Positions 37,411 to 46,890 of a DNA stretch of 64,000 bases are shown here, in pieces. The notes beneath the pieces are model-generated. The model was not told the DNA's origin. It ran no database searches and was given only the letters and a program-made list of their open reading frames with translations. Numbering within the stretch: position 1 is the first letter of the stretch; each line of letters begins with the position of its first letter. The position numbers and the translations under genes were made by a program. This DNA comes from Alphaproteobacteria bacterium. Its GTDB lineage: Bacteria; Pseudomonadota; Alphaproteobacteria; JAUHZC01. The DNA lies in NCBI GenBank assembly GCA_030425805.1, contig JAUHZC010000001.1, positions 301,302 through 365,301 on the forward strand, written 5' to 3'.

Positions 37411-38646
37411 ATGTCCATGATGAATAGATGGATCCGCAATAGAGATCAGGCTATGTACCTTTTCAGCACGCTGGAAAAGTACGATATGGCCCTGTATACG
37501 TTCCTGGCTCCTCTTTTTGCACCTACCTTTTTTCCTCAGTTTGAGCCTGCGATTCAGCTTGCCCTCACCTATGGAATCTCAGGGTTAATTCTTTTTATCC
37601 GACCCGTCGGCGTATGGTTTTGGACACGGATGCTTCCCTACCGGTGTGTGAGCTTTGATCTCAAGCGTTGTTTTGTAGGGGTTTATTTTCTCACACTTCT
37701 CTTCAGCCTCCTCCCGGGCTTCGAGACTGGGGGGTACTTAAGTATTGCTGGTTTCATCTGTTTACGACTAGGCTGGACTTTTTTCTCTGCCGGGGTGAAG
37801 GCCATTTCCCAGCTCTATTTTTTGGAAGACAAATCCAGCAAAGCTGGCATTCGTGGAGAGAGTCTTCGGCAATCTCTTGCTATGGCAGGCATGTTCCTCG
37901 CAAGCTTTTCAGGGATTTTCTTTTCCTGGCGTGTCTGTTTTTTCATAGGAGGAGCTGTAAGCCTTGTGCTCTACACCCTTATCCATAATCATCTCACCCC
38001 TGGGGATTTTCATTCTCCAGAAAGGTTCCCCCCAAAAAAAACACCCTTCTTGGCTATTGTGAGAAAAAGTTTTGCTCCTCTCCTTCATACCACGCTCACA
38101 ACAGGAATCGGCTATATTACGTATACCCTCGCCTTTGTCGTCATGAATGGTCTTCTCGTGATGAGCTATCCAGATCAGGCTGGTTTTTTCATGAGCGTGA
38201 ACACAGGGCTGCTGGTCCTCGATATGATATTGATGCTGGCCCTCGGTCGCATCCTTCAACATCGATCTCCAACCGCTGTGATGGTTCAAGCCGTGGCAGG
38301 GCTTCTATTCACAGTTGGGGCAGGATTTATCTTTCTTACCCTTGAAAACATGCCTTTGTTCTTTATCCTCCGGATTCTCATTGTTTTCTGGGGTGTAGCT
38401 TACTCCTGTGTTCTTGGTGTGCACCAAAAAGATTACCTGAAGAACTTTCAAAATCCCTACCTCCTTCAAGGGCTCGGGGGCACCCTGGGAAGTGGGCTTT
38501 TTGGAAAAGTTCTTCCGAGTCTTTGCTTTTGGATCTATGGAAAAATTGAAAGCTTCTTCCTGATGGGCTTCTTGGTCAGCGCTATCATTTGCTTCATTTT
38601 GCTTCAGGTTCAAAACCAACGAGATCCTTCCCCCCTGAAATCCTAA
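37411..38646 (+). CDS. MFS transporter (metabolite:H+ symporter-like)
   Basis: N-terminal LEKYDMALYTFLAPLF, resembling the EWYDF motif of ProP-type MFS carriers. About 12 TM helices. Confidence 0.7.
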   Translation: MSMMNRWIRNRDQAMYLFSTLEKYDMALYTFLAPLFAPTFFPQFEPAIQLALTYGISGLILFIRPVGVWFWTRMLPYRCVSFDLKRCFVGVYFLTLLFSLLPGFETGGYLSIAGFICLRLGWTFFSAGVKAISQLYFLEDKSSKAGIRGESLRQSLAMAGMFLASFSGIFFSWRVCFFIGGAVSLVLYTLIHNHLTPGDFHSPERFPPKKTPFLAIVRKSFAPLLHTTLTTGIGYITYTLAFVVMNGLLVMSYPDQAGFFMSVNTGLLVLDMILMLALGRILQHRSPTAVMVQAVAGLLFTVGAGFIFLTLENMPLFFILRILIVFWGVAYSCVLGVHQKDYLKNFQNPYLLQGLGGTLGSGLFGKVLPSLCFWIYGKIESFFLMGFLVSAIICFILLQVQNQRDPSPLKS

Positions 38647-39163
38647 GTTCCCGTTGCGCTCCAAATTCGAAAGAGAAAGCATCTTTCAAGCAGGCTCCAA
38701 AAACGCCTGCAATTGTTGAGAGAATTCCGACAGCTTCTCCCGAGATTTCGCTTTTATAAAGCCCAAGACAAACCAAGCACCCGACAAGCCCAAGAGCTGC
38801 ACTAATCACCATAATATCTGCACGCCGATTGACCCGCCCAATCCTTGCAAGGCTCAAATCACGAGCCCGTGCTGAGATACGATCTTGGACCTCAGCCTCT
38901 ATCTGAGCTTGCTCGAGTTGGGTGACACACTCTTGAAAACGAACAAGCATTTCTGGATTTTCCTTCAAGGTTTTAAGAGAGTCCTGGGGATTCTTTTCCC
39001 CTGTCACTTTGCGGGCAAGGTCAAGAATCTTATCCGCAGTATCGAGGGTATTCTTGAAAGTAAGAGCATCTTCTGTTGCTTTTTTTCCGGGACGAAGTAG
39101 CCGCCCAATTGCCGGAACAAGTTCTGCAAATCCAAGAGCTGCTGCGATAAGAGGAAAAGTCAT
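38594..39163 (-). CDS. holin-like 3-TM protein, last gene of the phage-derived block
   Basis: An N-terminal TM helix, a central coiled coil (LEQAQIEAEVQDR) and two C-terminal TM helices. Shares an ATGA overlap with the upstream ORF. The layout resembles GTA/phage 3-TM holins; this is from memory and not verified. Confidence 0.4.
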   Translation of the reverse strand: MTFPLIAAALGFAELVPAIGRLLRPGKKATEDALTFKNTLDTADKILDLARKVTGEKNPQDSLKTLKENPEMLVRFQECVTQLEQAQIEAEVQDRISARARDLSLARIGRVNRRADIMVISAALGLVGCLVCLGLYKSEISGEAVGILSTIAGVFGACLKDAFSFEFGAQRELRISGGKDLVGFEPEAK

Positions 39164-39336
39164 GCGTCTTCTCCAACAGATTGAGCAGCACCAGAAGAAG
39201 CCGCTGATTCAGGAACCCGAAGTGCAGATTCCAGCAAAGCTTCCAAGGCCTGTATGCGCTCTTCAAGCTCTCGAAAGTTCTGATCAAGCTCCATAGCCGT
39301 CAACGGAGCCCCTTTTTCTGTACGATATGTTATCAT
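39160..39336 (-). CDS. small phage-tail-fibre-like protein
   Basis: AAGGAG RBS 7 nt upstream of the ATG at 39336. N-terminal KGAPLTAMELDQNF followed by a coiled coil. Confidence 0.4.
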   Translation of the reverse strand: MITYRTEKGAPLTAMELDQNFRELEERIQALEALLESALRVPESAASSGAAQSVGEDA

Positions 39337-39349
39337 TTTTTTCTCCTTT

Positions 39350-40096
39350 CTACTCTCGTACGATGACATCCACAGGAATTTCCGCTTCTAGCAGAAAGTC
39401 TGGAACTTGTTTGAGATAAACCTGCTGACCTCCAATCGACCATGCATGGGCTTGAAGGCGACTTTTGATGGAGATAAAGGAAGCCGGTGGAAAAGCCGGC
39501 CCTGCATCAATACCAGGCCCAAACCATATTGGCAAAGGGCCGCCGACCTGGTCTTGCCAGATAATATCAAAACCATACCCATCCTCATCCAAAAAAGGTT
39601 GGCCATAAACCTGATGCCAAGCTGGTGCTACACCACCCAAGCTTCCTCCTAACGGTATAAAGGGCGCACGATCATATTCTGTGATTCCTAGGATAGGACA
39701 CTGAAACCCAATGCCATCTACATCATCATGACGAAAATCAAAGGTTACCTCAGGTGGCAGTTCGCCCTCTTCATGCAAGAATTGAAAAGGAAGAACGGTC
39801 TCATCCAAATCTTCTCCTTGGATTAAGGTTGCCTTGAGGCCTGCTGTCATGCGCTGGCCTGCAGGCCAAAGAACCGATTCAGAGGGGGTTGTCACAGCAC
39901 GCACGGTCTCATTTAAAACCCACCGCAATACAGGCTTTTCAAGAGGAAGGGGTTCAAGATGAAGATAAAACTGGGGTCCCGTTGATGTTCTGCTTCCCTC
40001 TAGCATATAGTGCGTTGCAGGGGAAAGATCTGCCCCAGCACCTGATTCATAAACGAGGATGTCTTCTTCTCCAATAAATTTAGGCTGCACCATCAC
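39350..40096 (-). CDS. phage-block protein of unknown function
   Basis: 248 aa. Overlaps the upstream 539-aa ORF by 14-17 nt. Confidence 0.5.
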   Translation of the reverse strand: MMVQPKFIGEEDILVYESGAGADLSPATHYMLEGSRTSTGPQFYLHLEPLPLEKPVLRWVLNETVRAVTTPSESVLWPAGQRMTAGLKATLIQGEDLDETVLPFQFLHEEGELPPEVTFDFRHDDVDGIGFQCPILGITEYDRAPFIPLGGSLGGVAPAWHQVYGQPFLDEDGYGFDIIWQDQVGGPLPIWFGPGIDAGPAFPPASFISIKSRLQAHAWSIGGQQVYLKQVPDFLLEAEIPVDVIVRE

Positions 40097-45630: not shown

Positions 45631-45663
45631 GGTAAGGGGAAGATTTTTTCTTCTCTCCTTACC
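45631..45663 (-). terminator. imperfect hairpin between the capsid and connector genes
   Basis: On the minus strand: GGTAAGGagAGAAGaaaaaatCTTCccCCTTACC. Confidence 0.4.
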
Positions 45664-45675
45664 AGAGGCTTTTTT

Positions 45676-46812
45676 TTAGACTGCTGCCGCTGCTTCTGCT
45701 GCAGCATCTTCTTCCTCTCCCTCCTTTCCAAACGTTATAAATTTCAATGCTTCTAAATCGACGACATCACCTCCTACTCGGCTTGTGACATAAAATTCGA
45801 CAAAAGGCTTATGTGTATACTCATCCCGCAGGATGTTCATACGGTCCCGGTTTCGATCCACGATTTGATAAGCCTTCTTGAAGTTCCCAAAAATAATTGG
45901 GGTTGAGCGGGTACCTGCAACCAAATTCGGCATCTGATCTGAAATCACGACAGGGTAGCCAAATAGAGTCCCAGGATGATCTCCATGAAGACCTGCCTGC
46001 CAGATATACTGACCATTGCGATCTTTCAGCTTACGCAATTGTGCATAGGCTGAGCGTGATAGAAGCCAACAAGCCCCAGACAAGTTTTCTGCAGGAAGGC
46101 GGTTCATCGCTTCAATTAAAACATCAGCCCCTTCTTCTGCATCAAAATCGCCATCCACACCTGTACAGATCTCTTCAAATCCGTCCCCAGCTTCAAAAGC
46201 GCCGTCCCCACGAGGGTATGCAAAAATACCTTTTGGGCGATCTGCTCCATCTCCATAGAGAAAGGCCTGGGACTCCATACGTGCCATCTCTTGGGAGACT
46301 TTAGCAATCAGCCAGGACTCAATATCAATGTAAGCATCATCCAAAAGCTTTTGCGTTGCCCGCGGAGATGCATACATTTCGTGGACACGAATTCGCTTCT
46401 TCTTGAAGGTGGGCGTCCCTGTCTCCGGGCGCATTGCCGTTTCATGAACCCAGCCGGCATCAGCGGCACCTTCATCCTGCAAAAACTCAATGCTGTCTGT
46501 TGAAATTTCAATTGTATTTGCAATTTGACGTAGAGGCGAAAGGTTCGCGAGGCTGCTAACAATCATAGCCCCTGTGGCCTCAGGAACGGCATAACCCCCG
46601 TCCATGTCCTCCTCACGGCTCAATGACTTGCTTGCATACTCACTGCGCAATCCCTCGTCGCCAGAACGCAAATACTGACTAAACTGGTTTTGGTCTCCAT
46701 AAGACGTGAAATCTGTGCCTCCCCTTTTCACATCAAGAGCTGCACCTGCTTTGGCTGCCATCTCTTGAGATGTCACGTTTTCGGGAGAATATTGTGTTGT
46801 TTCAGTGCTCAA
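45676..46812 (-). CDS. HK97-family phage major capsid protein
   Basis: FSQYLRSG...KSLS..EDMDGGYAVPE, later FLYGDG..RPKGIF and FGYPV. A TTG at 46812 is preceded by an AAGGAG RBS; the ORF is open to 46875. Confidence 0.85.
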   Translation of the reverse strand: MSTETTQYSPENVTSQEMAAKAGAALDVKRGGTDFTSYGDQNQFSQYLRSGDEGLRSEYASKSLSREEDMDGGYAVPEATGAMIVSSLANLSPLRQIANTIEISTDSIEFLQDEGAADAGWVHETAMRPETGTPTFKKKRIRVHEMYASPRATQKLLDDAYIDIESWLIAKVSQEMARMESQAFLYGDGADRPKGIFAYPRGDGAFEAGDGFEEICTGVDGDFDAEEGADVLIEAMNRLPAENLSGACWLLSRSAYAQLRKLKDRNGQYIWQAGLHGDHPGTLFGYPVVISDQMPNLVAGTRSTPIIFGNFKKAYQIVDRNRDRMNILRDEYTHKPFVEFYVTSRVGGDVVDLEALKFITFGKEGEEEDAAAEAAAAV

Positions 46813-46846
46813 CGCATTTCTCCTTCTTTCTTTATTGAACGTTTTG

Positions 46847-46890
46847 AGGATATAAACCGGGAATCCAATTGTCAAAAAATGCTAATCTTT
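46847..46890 (-). promoter_or_regulatory. candidate capsid promoter plus conserved 21-bp upstream element
   Basis: On the minus strand: aaagattagcatttttTTGACA, a 17-nt spacer, then TATCCT. The 21-mer at 46870-46890 is the exact reverse complement of 56905-56925. Confidence 0.5.

Follow-up and report, generated by a model that had tools for sequence, protein, structure and literature searches.

A cluster of nine phage-derived genes in the window (the whole 64-kb stretch of DNA analysed) probably encodes a gene transfer agent (GTA)-like particle of the Holosporales type, which would have been inherited vertically from the same domesticated phage ancestor as RcGTA. The original prediction of a domesticated GTA-type particle is supported by a capsid and an adaptor of the RcGTA lineage, by syntenic clusters in other genomes and by the lack of recent-prophage marks in the window. 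The options that it left beside this one, a distinct domestication or a clean prophage remnant, do not agree with head and neck genes that are RcGTA-lineage orthologues, nor with a gene order that is syntenic across Holosporales-like genomes. Clusters of this kind have already been published (George et al. 2022, PMC9254644); the identification of their tail genes appears to be new.

Organisation of the cluster

The nine ORFs are uninterrupted and lie on the minus strand between positions 38594 and 46812, in two blocks separated by two plus-strand cellular genes, gloB (Lactamase_B and HAGH_C domains) and an EamA transporter (Table 1). This layout had been described before, and its coordinates and junctions stood when checked on the sequence. 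Phage-style ATGA overlaps are read at 44535-38 and 39160-63, a ATGAGTGA overlap at 44110-17, and the ORF downstream of the hub gene (247 aa, listed as 248 aa, 39350-40096) overlaps the end of that gene by 14-17 nt (40080-96). Three further ORFs are shorter than listed: 142 aa counted from the coupled ATG at 44538 (listed as 158 aa, 44110-44586), 179 aa from the ATG at 44117 (listed as 188 aa, 43578-44144) and 58 aa for the fibre stub (extended to 69 aa by the ORF lister). The codon signal of all nine ORFs is host-like in the annotated frame only (+0.05 to +0.29 log-odds per codon, housekeeping genes of the window giving 0.13-0.35), and it is negative in the two non-annotated frames.

As had been noted from the letters alone, the window holds no recognisable terminase, portal, protease or integrase gene. 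None turned up when practically all large ORFs were scanned with Pfam, and local profiles of GTA g2, g3 and g4 matched no window ORF of at least 40 aa. No att-like flanking repeats were found around the cluster and no compositional island in the window, whose only tRNAs lie more than 16 kb from the cluster. Host-like codon use, the preserved coupling and the absence of an integrase, att repeat or compositional island point to long chromosomal residence.

Orphan, possibly secreted genes occur on the flanks of the cluster; one of them (47030-47791, plus strand), upstream of the capsid gene, gave no match in a Pfam scan.

Table 1. Features of the cluster, in the order of transcription of the minus strand
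Feature	Position	Strand	Basis
Major capsid protein, RcGTA g5 lineage, 378 aa	45676..46812	-	TTG start with AAGGAG ribosome-binding site
Stable stem-loop with U-rich tail, directly 3' of the capsid stop codon	45620..45672	-	Folding energy
Head-tail adaptor (g6 / gp6-like connector), 218 aa	44946..45602	-	PF05135, phrog_442, TIGR02215
Likely stopper/head-closure protein (divergent g7), about 128-133 aa, start codon uncertain	44535..44936	-	hhalign, position
142-aa ORF, position of the g8 tail terminator in relatives	44110..44538	-	Start-stop coupled at both ends, positive codon signal
Distal-tail-protein-like ring protein with tail-tube fold, 179 aa	43578..44117	-	AF2, Foldseek, hhalign, phage context
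EamA/DMT transporter, cellular gene, 318 aa	42594..43550	+	Pfam EamA (E 8.7e-31)
gloB (hydroxyacylglutathione hydrolase), cellular gene	41753..42538	+	Lactamase_B plus HAGH_C
Tail hub protein (Tal / gp27 / Mu gp44-like), 539 aa	40080..41699	-	Profiles, AF2 and Foldseek of a family member
CBM5/12 carbohydrate-binding insert in the hub, residues about 297-326	40722..40811	-	Pfam and PDB profile
247-aa protein, peripheral tail-tip/receptor-binding position	39350..40093	-	Host-like codon use, overlap with hub gene end
Tail-fibre N-terminal stub, 58 aa	39160..39336	-	hhalign
Holin-like membrane protein, 189 aa	38594..39163	-	phrog_1544, hydrophobic segments

Head and neck genes

The capsid ORF is identical to the database protein P0001, and the earlier capsid call is borne out by Pfam Phage_capsid (E 1.7e-77) and TIGR01554 (E 3.4e-97). 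Its top match among solved structures is RcGTA Rcc01687 (E 2.4e-64), whereas HK97 itself reaches only 4e-8. Comparison of the termini agrees with the earlier description of a short N-terminus, the coiled region being shortened, and of an acidic/Ala C-terminal tail. The stem-loop that follows the gene (-23.7 kcal/mol, z -3.9) was equalled in stability by 0 of 200 shuffles, and hairpins of different sequence stand at the same position in L001 and L002, the two other loci of the window clade, and in the Bealeia locus L097. This element is a candidate attenuator or terminator, through which the capsid would be expressed at a higher level than the neck and tail proteins.

The gp6-like connector was correctly recognised, since it matches PF05135 (E 2.6e-7), phrog_442 (E 5e-22) and TIGR02215 (60.2 bits, above the cut-off of 39 bits); a family profile seeded with it matched 77 ORFs in capsid-anchored alphaproteobacterial loci. 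The following ORF (133 aa), taken at first for an adaptor-like gene, is more likely the g7 stopper or head-closure protein. Alone it has no Pfam or PHROG match, but it occupies the g7 position and, aligned with its L001 and L002 counterparts, gives an hhalign probability of 85.7% (E 5.5e-6, nearly full length) to the Holosporales g7 (Phage_HCP) group and 67.8% to RcGTA-type g7, which amounts to moderate support. The 142-aa ORF shows no similarity to g8, the Holosporales g8 group, Pfam, PHROGs, NCBIfam or PDB sequences, and its counterpart is absent from L001 and L002. Sequence comparison places the capsid and the adaptor in the RcGTA lineage, to which the head and neck genes are orthologous.

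Tail-tip and lysis genes

The genes after the neck had been said to differ from RcGTA g9-g15, and indeed no profile similarity to that set was found in them; tail tube, assembly chaperone and tape measure genes are likewise missing from the cluster. The AF2 model of the 179-aa protein (pLDDT 82.5, pTM 0.75) matched tail tube and Dit proteins in Foldseek, including those of 80alpha, SPP1, lambda V and RcGTA 6tba_50, and by hhalign the protein belongs to a Holosporales family (99.7%) and to a phage family (98.7%). In phage contigs the gene immediately before this family encodes a tape measure protein in all 10 cases tested, and the hub gene follows it in 66 of 76. Because of this position after the tape measure, the tube-fold protein is identified as a distal tail protein.

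The hub profile of the window clade matches Holosporales members with E values from 1e-24 to 4e-9, and the window protein aligns with the main family over its residues 169-434 (hhalign 96.5%, E 7e-10), its N- and C-terminal thirds not being alignable. The AF2 model of a family member, P0122 (pLDDT 90.8), retrieved baseplate hub and spike proteins in Foldseek (E down to 4.5e-8, probability 1.00). These results indicate that the 539-aa protein is a hub of gp27/Mu gp44/VgrG fold, which has diverged within a large family of phage proteins. The make-up of this family is modular and includes carbohydrate-binding and lectin domains; the insert in the window hub matches Pfam CBM_5_12 with an E value of 4.9e-5, which is below the curated cut-off, and the family profile matches PDB chitin-binding domains (E 5e-8).

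After the hub, relatives carry proteins of 251-318 aa at the position of the 247-aa protein, which has no detectable similarity to them, to Pfam, PHROGs, NCBIfam or to anything else compared; from its position, it is probably a peripheral or receptor-binding protein. The small protein previously seen as tail-fibre-like is an N-terminal fibre stub, which aligns (hhalign 99.0%, E 7.6e-18) with the N-terminal 36 residues of small fibre proteins from Holosporales clusters (121-208 aa, most with a CBM5/12-like domain). In 68 of 80 phage loci a member of its motif family lies 3' of the hub, and the stub is kept in L001 and L002 with 57-67% identity over the motif. The holin-like assignment of the last gene also stands. 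The protein matches phrog_1544 (E 4.6e-12), has one N-terminal and two C-terminal hydrophobic segments, and shares 53-62% identity with its counterparts in L001 and L002. Its family occurs in 12 phage contigs, directly 3' of the endolysin in 7 of the 8 tested, and in Holosporaceae the gene comes after a Hydrolase_2 cell-wall hydrolase.

Conservation, embedded genes and selection

The order capsid, g6, g7, Dit-like, EamA, hub, protein of about 250-320 aa, fibre and holin-like is shared by L001, L002, nine GTDB loci, Holosporales MAGs and the complete genome of Ca. Bealeia. Among 94 capsid-anchored loci that extend 6 kb or more downstream, 18, with Ca. Bealeia among them, show this gene order and the Dit/hub tail type, and 56 have the RcGTA tail type; none has both, and RcGTA g9-g15 are found in none of the 18. 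The capsids of genomes sharing the whole order, EamA included, are only 40-60% identical. An origin from an independent prophage or a separate domestication outside the RcGTA lineage, which the lack of detectable similarity of the tail-tip genes to g9-g15 and their frequent homologues in real siphophage contigs might suggest, is highly improbable given the RcGTA-type capsid and adaptor, this shared order and the absence of integrase, att repeat, tRNA junction and compositional shift; at most, the tail module was acquired from another siphophage, in an exchange older than the divergence of the sampled Holosporales-like lineages.

The two cellular genes have different histories. gloB is a clade-specific insertion, which occurs here in the window, L001 and L002 and in no other locus. 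EamA has its likely start at about 42594, clear of gloB, and shares 68-70% identity with its counterparts in L001 and L002. In 16 of the 18 Holosporales-type loci it separates the Dit-like gene from the hub-like gene; therefore this split is old, and EamA is a resident rather than a recent interruption.

A loss of packaging genes, as proposed earlier, is shown for the 64-kb window only: in other relatives the portal and protease genes immediately precede that of the capsid, a place where the window and L001 have neither and L002 retains the protease. A recognisable g8 terminator and Hydrolase_2 endolysin are missing from all three members of the clade. With these two genes gone, a 58-aa fibre and a short capsid N-terminus, the window clade seems pared down beside other Holosporales clusters; the missing portal, protease, g8 and endolysin genes may be located elsewhere in the genome.

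Synonymous sites are saturated across the window, L001 and L002 (pS 0.66-0.87), and of the nine ORFs all but the 142-aa one, hub genes of 531-672 codons included, are intact in each of these genomes. The capsid (pN 0.30), g6 (0.38) and holin-like (0.36) genes are as constrained as the host gene gloB (0.41); the host gene EamA gives 0.21. The 133-, 188-, 539- and 248-aa proteins share 19-27% identity with their L001 and L002 counterparts, and their pN of 0.52-0.60 is so near their own saturated pS that constraint on them is weak or not measurable.

Alternative explanations

These data also bear on the idea that the lineage is losing its Holosporales GTA-like cluster and makes no particle, the ORFs being not yet disrupted or employed in unrelated roles. 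The missing portal and protease, with a leftover protease in L002, the loss of g8 and endolysin throughout the clade, the fibre cut to 58-67 aa, the very fast evolution of the tail genes and the 142-aa ORF without counterpart would all fit such decay. We consider it unlikely: eight ORFs intact despite synonymous saturation, capsid, adaptor and holin-like genes as constrained as gloB, retained start-stop coupling with host-like codon use, and conservation of the truncated fibre stub itself speak against it.

Somewhat less likely still is a repurposed structure, in which the head and its short tail tip would serve another purpose than gene transfer, for example as a compartment or to deliver or display protein cargo to a eukaryotic host, with a capsid that functions without packaging machinery. 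Repurposing has been raised for symbiont GTAs (George et al. 2022, PMC9254644), since the value of gene transfer is difficult to argue where populations are small and clonal. The uncoupling of the capsid from portal and protease, its shortened N-terminus, the modular sugar-binding hub family and the possibly secreted flanking orphans are compatible with it. Against it, an adaptor and a stopper are meaningful only where there is a portal vertex, the holin-like gene suggests that particles leave by lysis, like classical GTAs, and portal and protease remain adjacent in other Holosporales clusters.

Proposed particle

Under the preferred reading, a GTA-like particle of RcGTA ancestry, two translationally coupled minus-strand operons would build the structure. 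The first comprises the capsid gene, the hairpin, the g6 adaptor, the g7-like stopper, the 142-aa ORF and the distal tail protein; the second, the CBM-bearing gp27/gp44-like hub, the 247-aa protein, the 58-aa fibre stub and the holin-like protein. An HK97-fold head would carry a neck capped directly by the Dit ring and the hub trimer. The prediction of this very short, tube-less tail follows from the lack of genes for a tail tube, an assembly chaperone and a tape measure in the cluster. We know of no characterised particle with a Dit ring on a siphovirus-type neck without tube or tape measure. The cargo would likely be DNA, provided that other parts of the genome encode portal, maturation protease and terminase, and release would proceed through holin-assisted lysis.

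Comparison with known systems

The closest systems are the GTA clusters described in endosymbionts of the Holosporaceae and the Rickettsiales (George et al. 2022, Genome Biol Evol, PMC9254644). In Holosporaceae, purifying selection and transcripts have been reported for the head genes, unannotated downstream genes were flagged as possible tail genes and the terminase lies elsewhere in the genome, while TEM of more than 850 Holosporaceae and Rickettsiaceae symbiont cells showed no particles. The window shares with these clusters the RcGTA-lineage capsid and adaptor on a reduced alphaproteobacterial chromosome, the unannotated genes 3' of the adaptor, the absence of a terminase from the cluster and the lack of recognisable RcGTA tail genes. 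It differs in having no adjacent portal or protease, an inserted gloB, and no g8 or endolysin. Whereas the tail was treated in that study as missing or undetected, the downstream genes are assigned here to a Dit-like ring, a hub of gp27/gp44 type, a fibre, a holin-like protein and, in relatives, a cell-wall hydrolase.

With RcGTA (Bardy et al. 2020, PMC7296036) the window shares the homologous capsid g5 and adaptor g6, probably the stopper g7, and a chromosomal cluster incapable of phage replication for which lysis-dependent release is plausible. On the other hand, RcGTA has the terminator g8, five tube g9 discs, chaperones, tape measure g11, Dit g12, hub g13, peptidase g14 and megatron g15, of which g9-g15 are undetectable in the window, and the gp27-like hub domains that it splits between g13 and g15 lie in a single chain here.

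Finally, the tail module is like the siphophage tail tip (tape measure, Dit and Tal, as in 80alpha and SPP1, with the Mu gp44/T4 gp27 hub fold). The 179-aa and 539-aa families take the Dit and Tal positions in 76 IMG/VR contigs, with a tube-like and a hub fold respectively, and a fibre with the same N-terminal motif follows downstream. Unlike in siphophages, the Dit-like gene of the window is not preceded by a tape measure, tube or chaperone gene, and the module is joined to an RcGTA-type head and neck and interrupted by cellular genes.

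Gene layout and content of the window

Nine uninterrupted ORFs are arranged in two minus-strand blocks, as the original prediction had claimed, and the coupling between them is borne out by junctions read directly from the sequence: ATGA overlaps at 44535-38 and 39160-63, a ATGAGTGA overlap at 44110-17 and an overlap of 14-17 nt at 40080-96. The likely start codons follow from these overlaps. The capsid gene starts at TTG 46812 and its product of 378 aa is identical to the database protein P0001; the ORF initially taken as 158 aa encodes 142 aa when counted from the coupled ATG, the one taken as 188 aa encodes 179 aa at its likely start, and the small ORF, preceded by an AGGAG ribosome-binding site, encodes 58 aa. 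A host-like codon signal was found in all nine ORFs, only in the annotated frame. The plus strand between both blocks carries two cellular genes recognised by Pfam, gloB and an EamA transporter gene (Table).

The claimed lack of packaging and mobility genes also agrees with the searches. Pfam scans across essentially every sizeable ORF of the window returned housekeeping genes and some orphans and revealed no terminase, portal, prohead protease, integrase or repressor, and the local profiles of the gene transfer agent (GTA) genes g2, g3 and g4 had no match in it. None of g2, g3 and g4 was found within the window; portal and protease adjoin the capsid gene in 16 of 18 loci of the Holosporales type described below. 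None of the features of an integrated prophage (integrase, att repeats, replication or lysogeny genes, compositional island) was detected in the window, and there is no tRNA close to the cluster. Prophage boundaries were considered and dropped, since the only flanking repeats are short, imperfect and at chance level, none of them att-like.

Five orphan ORFs without Pfam match flank the cluster. Judging from a reading of the sequences, several seem to be hydrophobic in an N-terminal segment and to carry tails that are Arg-rich or acidic; they may encode secreted, symbiont-specific proteins. Other large ORFs of the window (381-667 aa) also lack a Pfam match, and the GTA profiles for terminase, portal and protease match none of them. 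A zeta-toxin-like protein, a secretion ATPase and a diguanylate cyclase are encoded among its otherwise housekeeping genes.

Table. Location of the cluster, its embedded transporter gene and other features in the window and in related loci
Feature	Location	Strand	Remark
First minus-strand block	43578-46812	-	
Second minus-strand block	38594-41699	-	
EamA/DMT transporter	42594-43550	+	Between Dit-like and hub-like genes; start probably ~42594
Post-capsid hairpin	45620-45672	-	Directly after capsid stop; -23.7 kcal/mol, z -3.9
Post-capsid hairpin, L001	~11179-11217		
Post-capsid hairpin, L002	~1632-1727		Followed by a U-run
Post-capsid hairpin, L097	~11219-11249		
Flanking orphan ORF	35338-36165	-	
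Flanking orphan ORF	36342-37361	+	
Flanking orphan ORF	47030-47791	+	
Flanking orphan ORF	47831-49441	+	
Flanking orphan ORF	50644-51453	-	
Large ORF, no Pfam match	1-1214		
Large ORF, no Pfam match	14391-15770	-	
Large ORF, no Pfam match	18263-19786	+	
Large ORF, no Pfam match	54802-56805	-	
Zeta-toxin-like protein	9784-10695	+	
T2SSE-family secretion ATPase	13263-14336	+	
PAS-GGDEF diguanylate cyclase	62229-63161	-	
Dit-like gene, L099	12603-13326		Called as 64-aa and 78-aa pieces
Dit-like gene, L100	12805-13326		Whole (173 aa)

Capsid, adaptor and neck proteins

The head-neck module belongs to the lineage of the Rhodobacter capsulatus gene transfer agent (RcGTA). Among solved structures the capsid matches best with Rcc01687, the RcGTA capsid (g5), at an E value of 2.4e-64; the next phage capsid reaches 2e-36 and HK97 only 4e-8. 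The protein is therefore nearer to the RcGTA capsid than to those of unrelated phages with the HK97 fold. It shares 40-60% identity with capsids from chromosomal GTA clusters. It lacks most of the coiled segment that its relatives have at the N-terminus, and a 15-residue acidic/Ala C-terminal tail is exclusive to the window capsid.

Directly downstream lies the gene of the g6 adaptor, a protein of 218 aa with matches to PF05135 and phrog_442. Its score with TIGR02215 (60.2 bits) is above the curated cut-off of 39 bits, and a profile seeded on it matches 77 ORFs in the fetched alphaproteobacterial capsid-anchored loci; as a single sequence it had no match in the PDB sequence search. The 133-aa protein is probably the g7 stopper, judging from hhalign probabilities of 85.7% to the Holosporales g7 (Phage_HCP) group and 67.8% to the RcGTA-type g7. 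The 142-aa ORF has no similarity to the g8 terminator by hhalign, although it lies at the position of g8 in the relatives (g8 is present in other Holosporales clusters, 95.6%). It has no counterpart in the two closest genomes, L001 and L002, and its product had no match in the PDB sequence search.

A stable hairpin directly follows the capsid stop codon, and hairpins are found after the capsid gene in L001, L002 and the Ca. Bealeia locus L097 as well, so that the position is kept in four genomes and the sequence is not. This element may be an attenuator by which capsid is made in a set proportion to the proteins of neck and tail.

Gene order and embedded cellular genes

The two closest capsids (60% and 56% identity) are encoded on the contigs L001 and L002, where the gene order is the same as in the window, including EamA and gloB on the opposite strand. 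A metagenome scan with the three capsids gave no relative closer than 49%, and the window clade therefore consists of these three genomes only. More distant Holosporales-like genomes (Holosporaceae MAGs, a Nucleicultricaceae MAG and the complete chromosome of Ca. Bealeia paramacronuclearis) share one order: portal, S78 protease, capsid, g6, g7, g8, a protein of ~170 aa, EamA on the opposite strand, a protein of ~600 aa, another of ~250-320 aa, a small fibre, a Hydrolase_2 cell-wall hydrolase and a protein of ~180 aa.

The tail type was tabulated for the 94 capsid-anchored loci that extend 6 kb or more downstream. RcGTA-type tail genes occur in 56 of them, and genes for a distal tail protein (Dit) and a baseplate hub (Dit/hub or Holosporales type) in 18; none has both and 20 have neither. 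Of the 18 Holosporales-type loci, 16 contain EamA inside the cluster, nearly always on the opposite strand (loci with EamA include the window, L003, L004, L005, L009-L011, L013, L031, L095, L097, L099 and L181), whereas gloB occupies this position only in the window clade. The split by host genes claimed in the original prediction does exist, then, but it is ancient in the case of EamA and clade-specific in that of gloB. With EamA, a cellular gene has been conserved within a cluster of phage origin over deep divergences, and either a functional link or trapped synteny may account for this.

Two Holosporales-type loci are exceptions: in L008 the Dit-like gene adjoins the hub gene without EamA between them, and L007 has a Dit-like gene with no hub within 8 kb downstream. 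The loci L099 and L100 encode an identical capsid protein in the same gene order and differ in the Dit-like gene, which is whole in L100 and split in L099, either by an assembly error or as a population variant with a broken gene.

Tail tip proteins

The model of the 179-aa protein, built with 24 relatives (pLDDT 82.5), shows a tail-tube fold, and its Foldseek matches include the tube and Dit of 80alpha, SPP1, lambda V, Hcp and an RcGTA virion chain. The window-clade profile aligns by hhalign with the Holosporales family (99.7%) and with a phage family (98.7%). Among 76 IMG/VR phage contigs, the gene of this family is directly followed by a hub-family gene in 66 and preceded by an ORF of at least 480 aa in 68; all ten of these upstream ORFs that were tested encode tape measure proteins. 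The position between tape measure and hub is canonical for Dit, and both predicted fold and family position identify the 179-aa protein as a distal tail protein. It had also been considered as the major tail tube, which was dropped because its phage homologues sit after the tape measure and not before it. The window itself contains no tape measure gene, and the Dit family profile gave no match in the PDB sequence search.

The 539-aa protein, whose gene comes after that of Dit, is identified with the help of a predicted structure as a divergent tail hub of the gp27/Mu gp44/Tal type. It belongs to a very large family, of which a search with the member P0122 gave at least 1122 clusters at 50% identity; the core of this family is without a Pfam or PHROG model. 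The window clade aligns with this family by hhalign (96.5%, E 7e-10) over residues 169-434 only, a stretch that reaches well beyond the CBM5/12 insert. The confident AF2 model of P0122 (pLDDT 90.8) matches Mu gp44, MuSo2, VgrG, the spikes of contractile injection systems and the 80alpha hub with a Foldseek probability of 1.00, and also a Neisseria prophage tail protein, an 80alpha baseplate chain (6v8i_AE), a T5 tail-tip chain (9ioz_J) and predicted tail proteins of siphoviruses and myoviruses. Long members of the family end in lectin-like domains, as receptor-binding hub proteins do. In a word-indexed protein search the 539-aa protein found nothing but itself, its 12-sequence alignment added one relative, and in the PDB sequence search the hub profile matched only through the CBM5/12 insert. 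Members (P0122-P0272; L101-L180) are common in phage contigs of 30-118 kb, and the family represents a widespread phage tail hub that has so far been unannotated.

Fibre, 247-aa and holin-like proteins

The 58-aa protein is a fibre stub: it corresponds to the N-terminal anchor motif (36 residues) of the fibres, 121-208 aa long, that other Holosporales clusters encode. Most of these fibres have a CBM5/12-like domain. Of 80 phage loci, 68 have the family of this motif downstream of their hub gene. The 247-aa protein showed no similarity by profile comparison, PDB sequence search or NCBIfam. It was considered as a tape measure and discarded on reading its sequence alone, which is Gly/Pro-rich and not coiled-looking.

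The 189-aa protein has one N-terminal and two C-terminal hydrophobic segments and matches PHROG 1544, annotated as 'unknown function'. This family comes directly after the endolysin gene in seven of eight phage contigs, and in Holosporaceae the homologue follows the Hydrolase_2 gene. The sequence features and gene neighbourhood point to a holin-like protein, even though no named holin family was matched (Pfam included, at E values up to 0.1), the PDB sequence search with the family gave nothing and no endolysin adjoins the gene in the window. PHROG 1544, found immediately downstream of GH108 or M15 endolysins in IMG/VR phage contigs (L083-L094), is a widespread unannotated phage family that behaves as a holin-like partner of endolysins, and it could be annotated as a holin-like lysis protein.

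Selection and possible reduction in the window clade

Synonymous sites are saturated between the window, L001 and L002 (pS 0.66-0.87); as dN/dS is not estimable under saturation, only pN and pS are compared. The pN values are 0.30 for the capsid, 0.38 for the adaptor and 0.36 for the holin-like protein, with 0.41 for gloB and 0.21 for EamA among the host genes. The tail genes evolve fast (pN 0.52-0.60), in a saturated comparison from which constraint is not judgeable. Synteny kept despite saturated dS, together with pN far below pS for capsid, adaptor and holin-like protein, shows vertical inheritance under purifying selection, and the window has no integrase, replication or att features that would make the cluster self-transmissible.

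The clade has, on the other hand, its own peculiarities: g8 and the endolysin are missing, the fibre is a stub, and there are no portal and protease genes upstream of the capsid in the window or L001, a protease fragment being still present in L002. These traits, like the two capsid features given above, could reflect ongoing reduction. However, the ORFs remain intact in all three genomes despite the saturation of synonymous sites, with the exception of the 142-aa ORF, and the pN of capsid, adaptor and holin-like protein is comparable to that of gloB and EamA, which argues against plain decay.

Nature and significance of the cluster

GTA head and portal genes have been reported across Holosporaceae and Rickettsiales, with purifying selection, transcripts and a terminase encoded away from the cluster; no particles were visible by TEM of related symbionts, and the unknown genes after the adaptor were proposed as possible tail genes lacking detectable similarity (George et al. 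2022, PMC9254644). The window holds a further, somewhat reduced member of this published type. It is likely that the cluster is a vertically inherited, GTA-like one of the RcGTA lineage and Holosporales type, encoding a head, a neck, a tube-less tail tip and a holin-like protein; particle production in this genome depends on genes outside the window. In the literature searched, no later publication identifying the post-adaptor genes was found, and the Dit-Tal tail tip, the lysis pair and the embedded EamA appear to go beyond what is published.

Symbiont GTA clusters are a published puzzle of conserved head genes, no recognisable tail and no particles seen. The downstream 'hypothetical' genes are now assigned to a ring of the distal tail, a hub that has sugar-binding inserts, and a fibre, and in the relatives also to an endolysin-holin pair. 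Taken together, these would make up one apparatus for recognising the host and another for release. The Dit/hub gene set predicts a specific short-tailed morphology, and it gives proteomics and cryo-ET definite proteins to look for in tractable systems, among them Ca. Bealeia in Paramecium.

The RcGTA tail genes g9-g15 have no HMM or hhalign similarity in the window and are absent from the 18 Dit/hub-type loci. No g9 tube, g10 chaperones or g11 tape measure were found between the neck and the Dit-like gene in any Holosporales-type locus, the 142-, 179-, 247- and 539-aa proteins gave nothing at 30% probability or above with the local RcGTA g8-g15 families, and the Dit and hub families have no profile similarity to g12, g13 or g15. 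The tail tip has been either replaced from another siphophage lineage or diverged beyond recognition. Stopper, terminator, tube and Dit of RcGTA have one shared fold and are stacked as hexamers (PMC7296036), so that a Dit ring docking directly on the neck would be sterically plausible.

In a fuller scenario, tentative and rather doubtful as a whole, GTAs of the Holosporales type would not be 'tailless', and the RcGTA tube, tape measure and megatron tail was swapped for the Dit-Tal tip of another siphophage lineage before the sampled Holosporales-like lineages diverged, giving a short-tailed particle without tube or tape measure, with its own endolysin-holin pair and a trapped transporter gene, and with head genes uncoupled from portal and protease in the window clade. 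This uncoupling could mark a shift from DNA transfer to another role. The data suggest that GTA evolution included the replacement of tail modules. To our knowledge such a tube-less, tape-measure-less, short-tailed architecture has not been described for any GTA or siphovirus-derived element.
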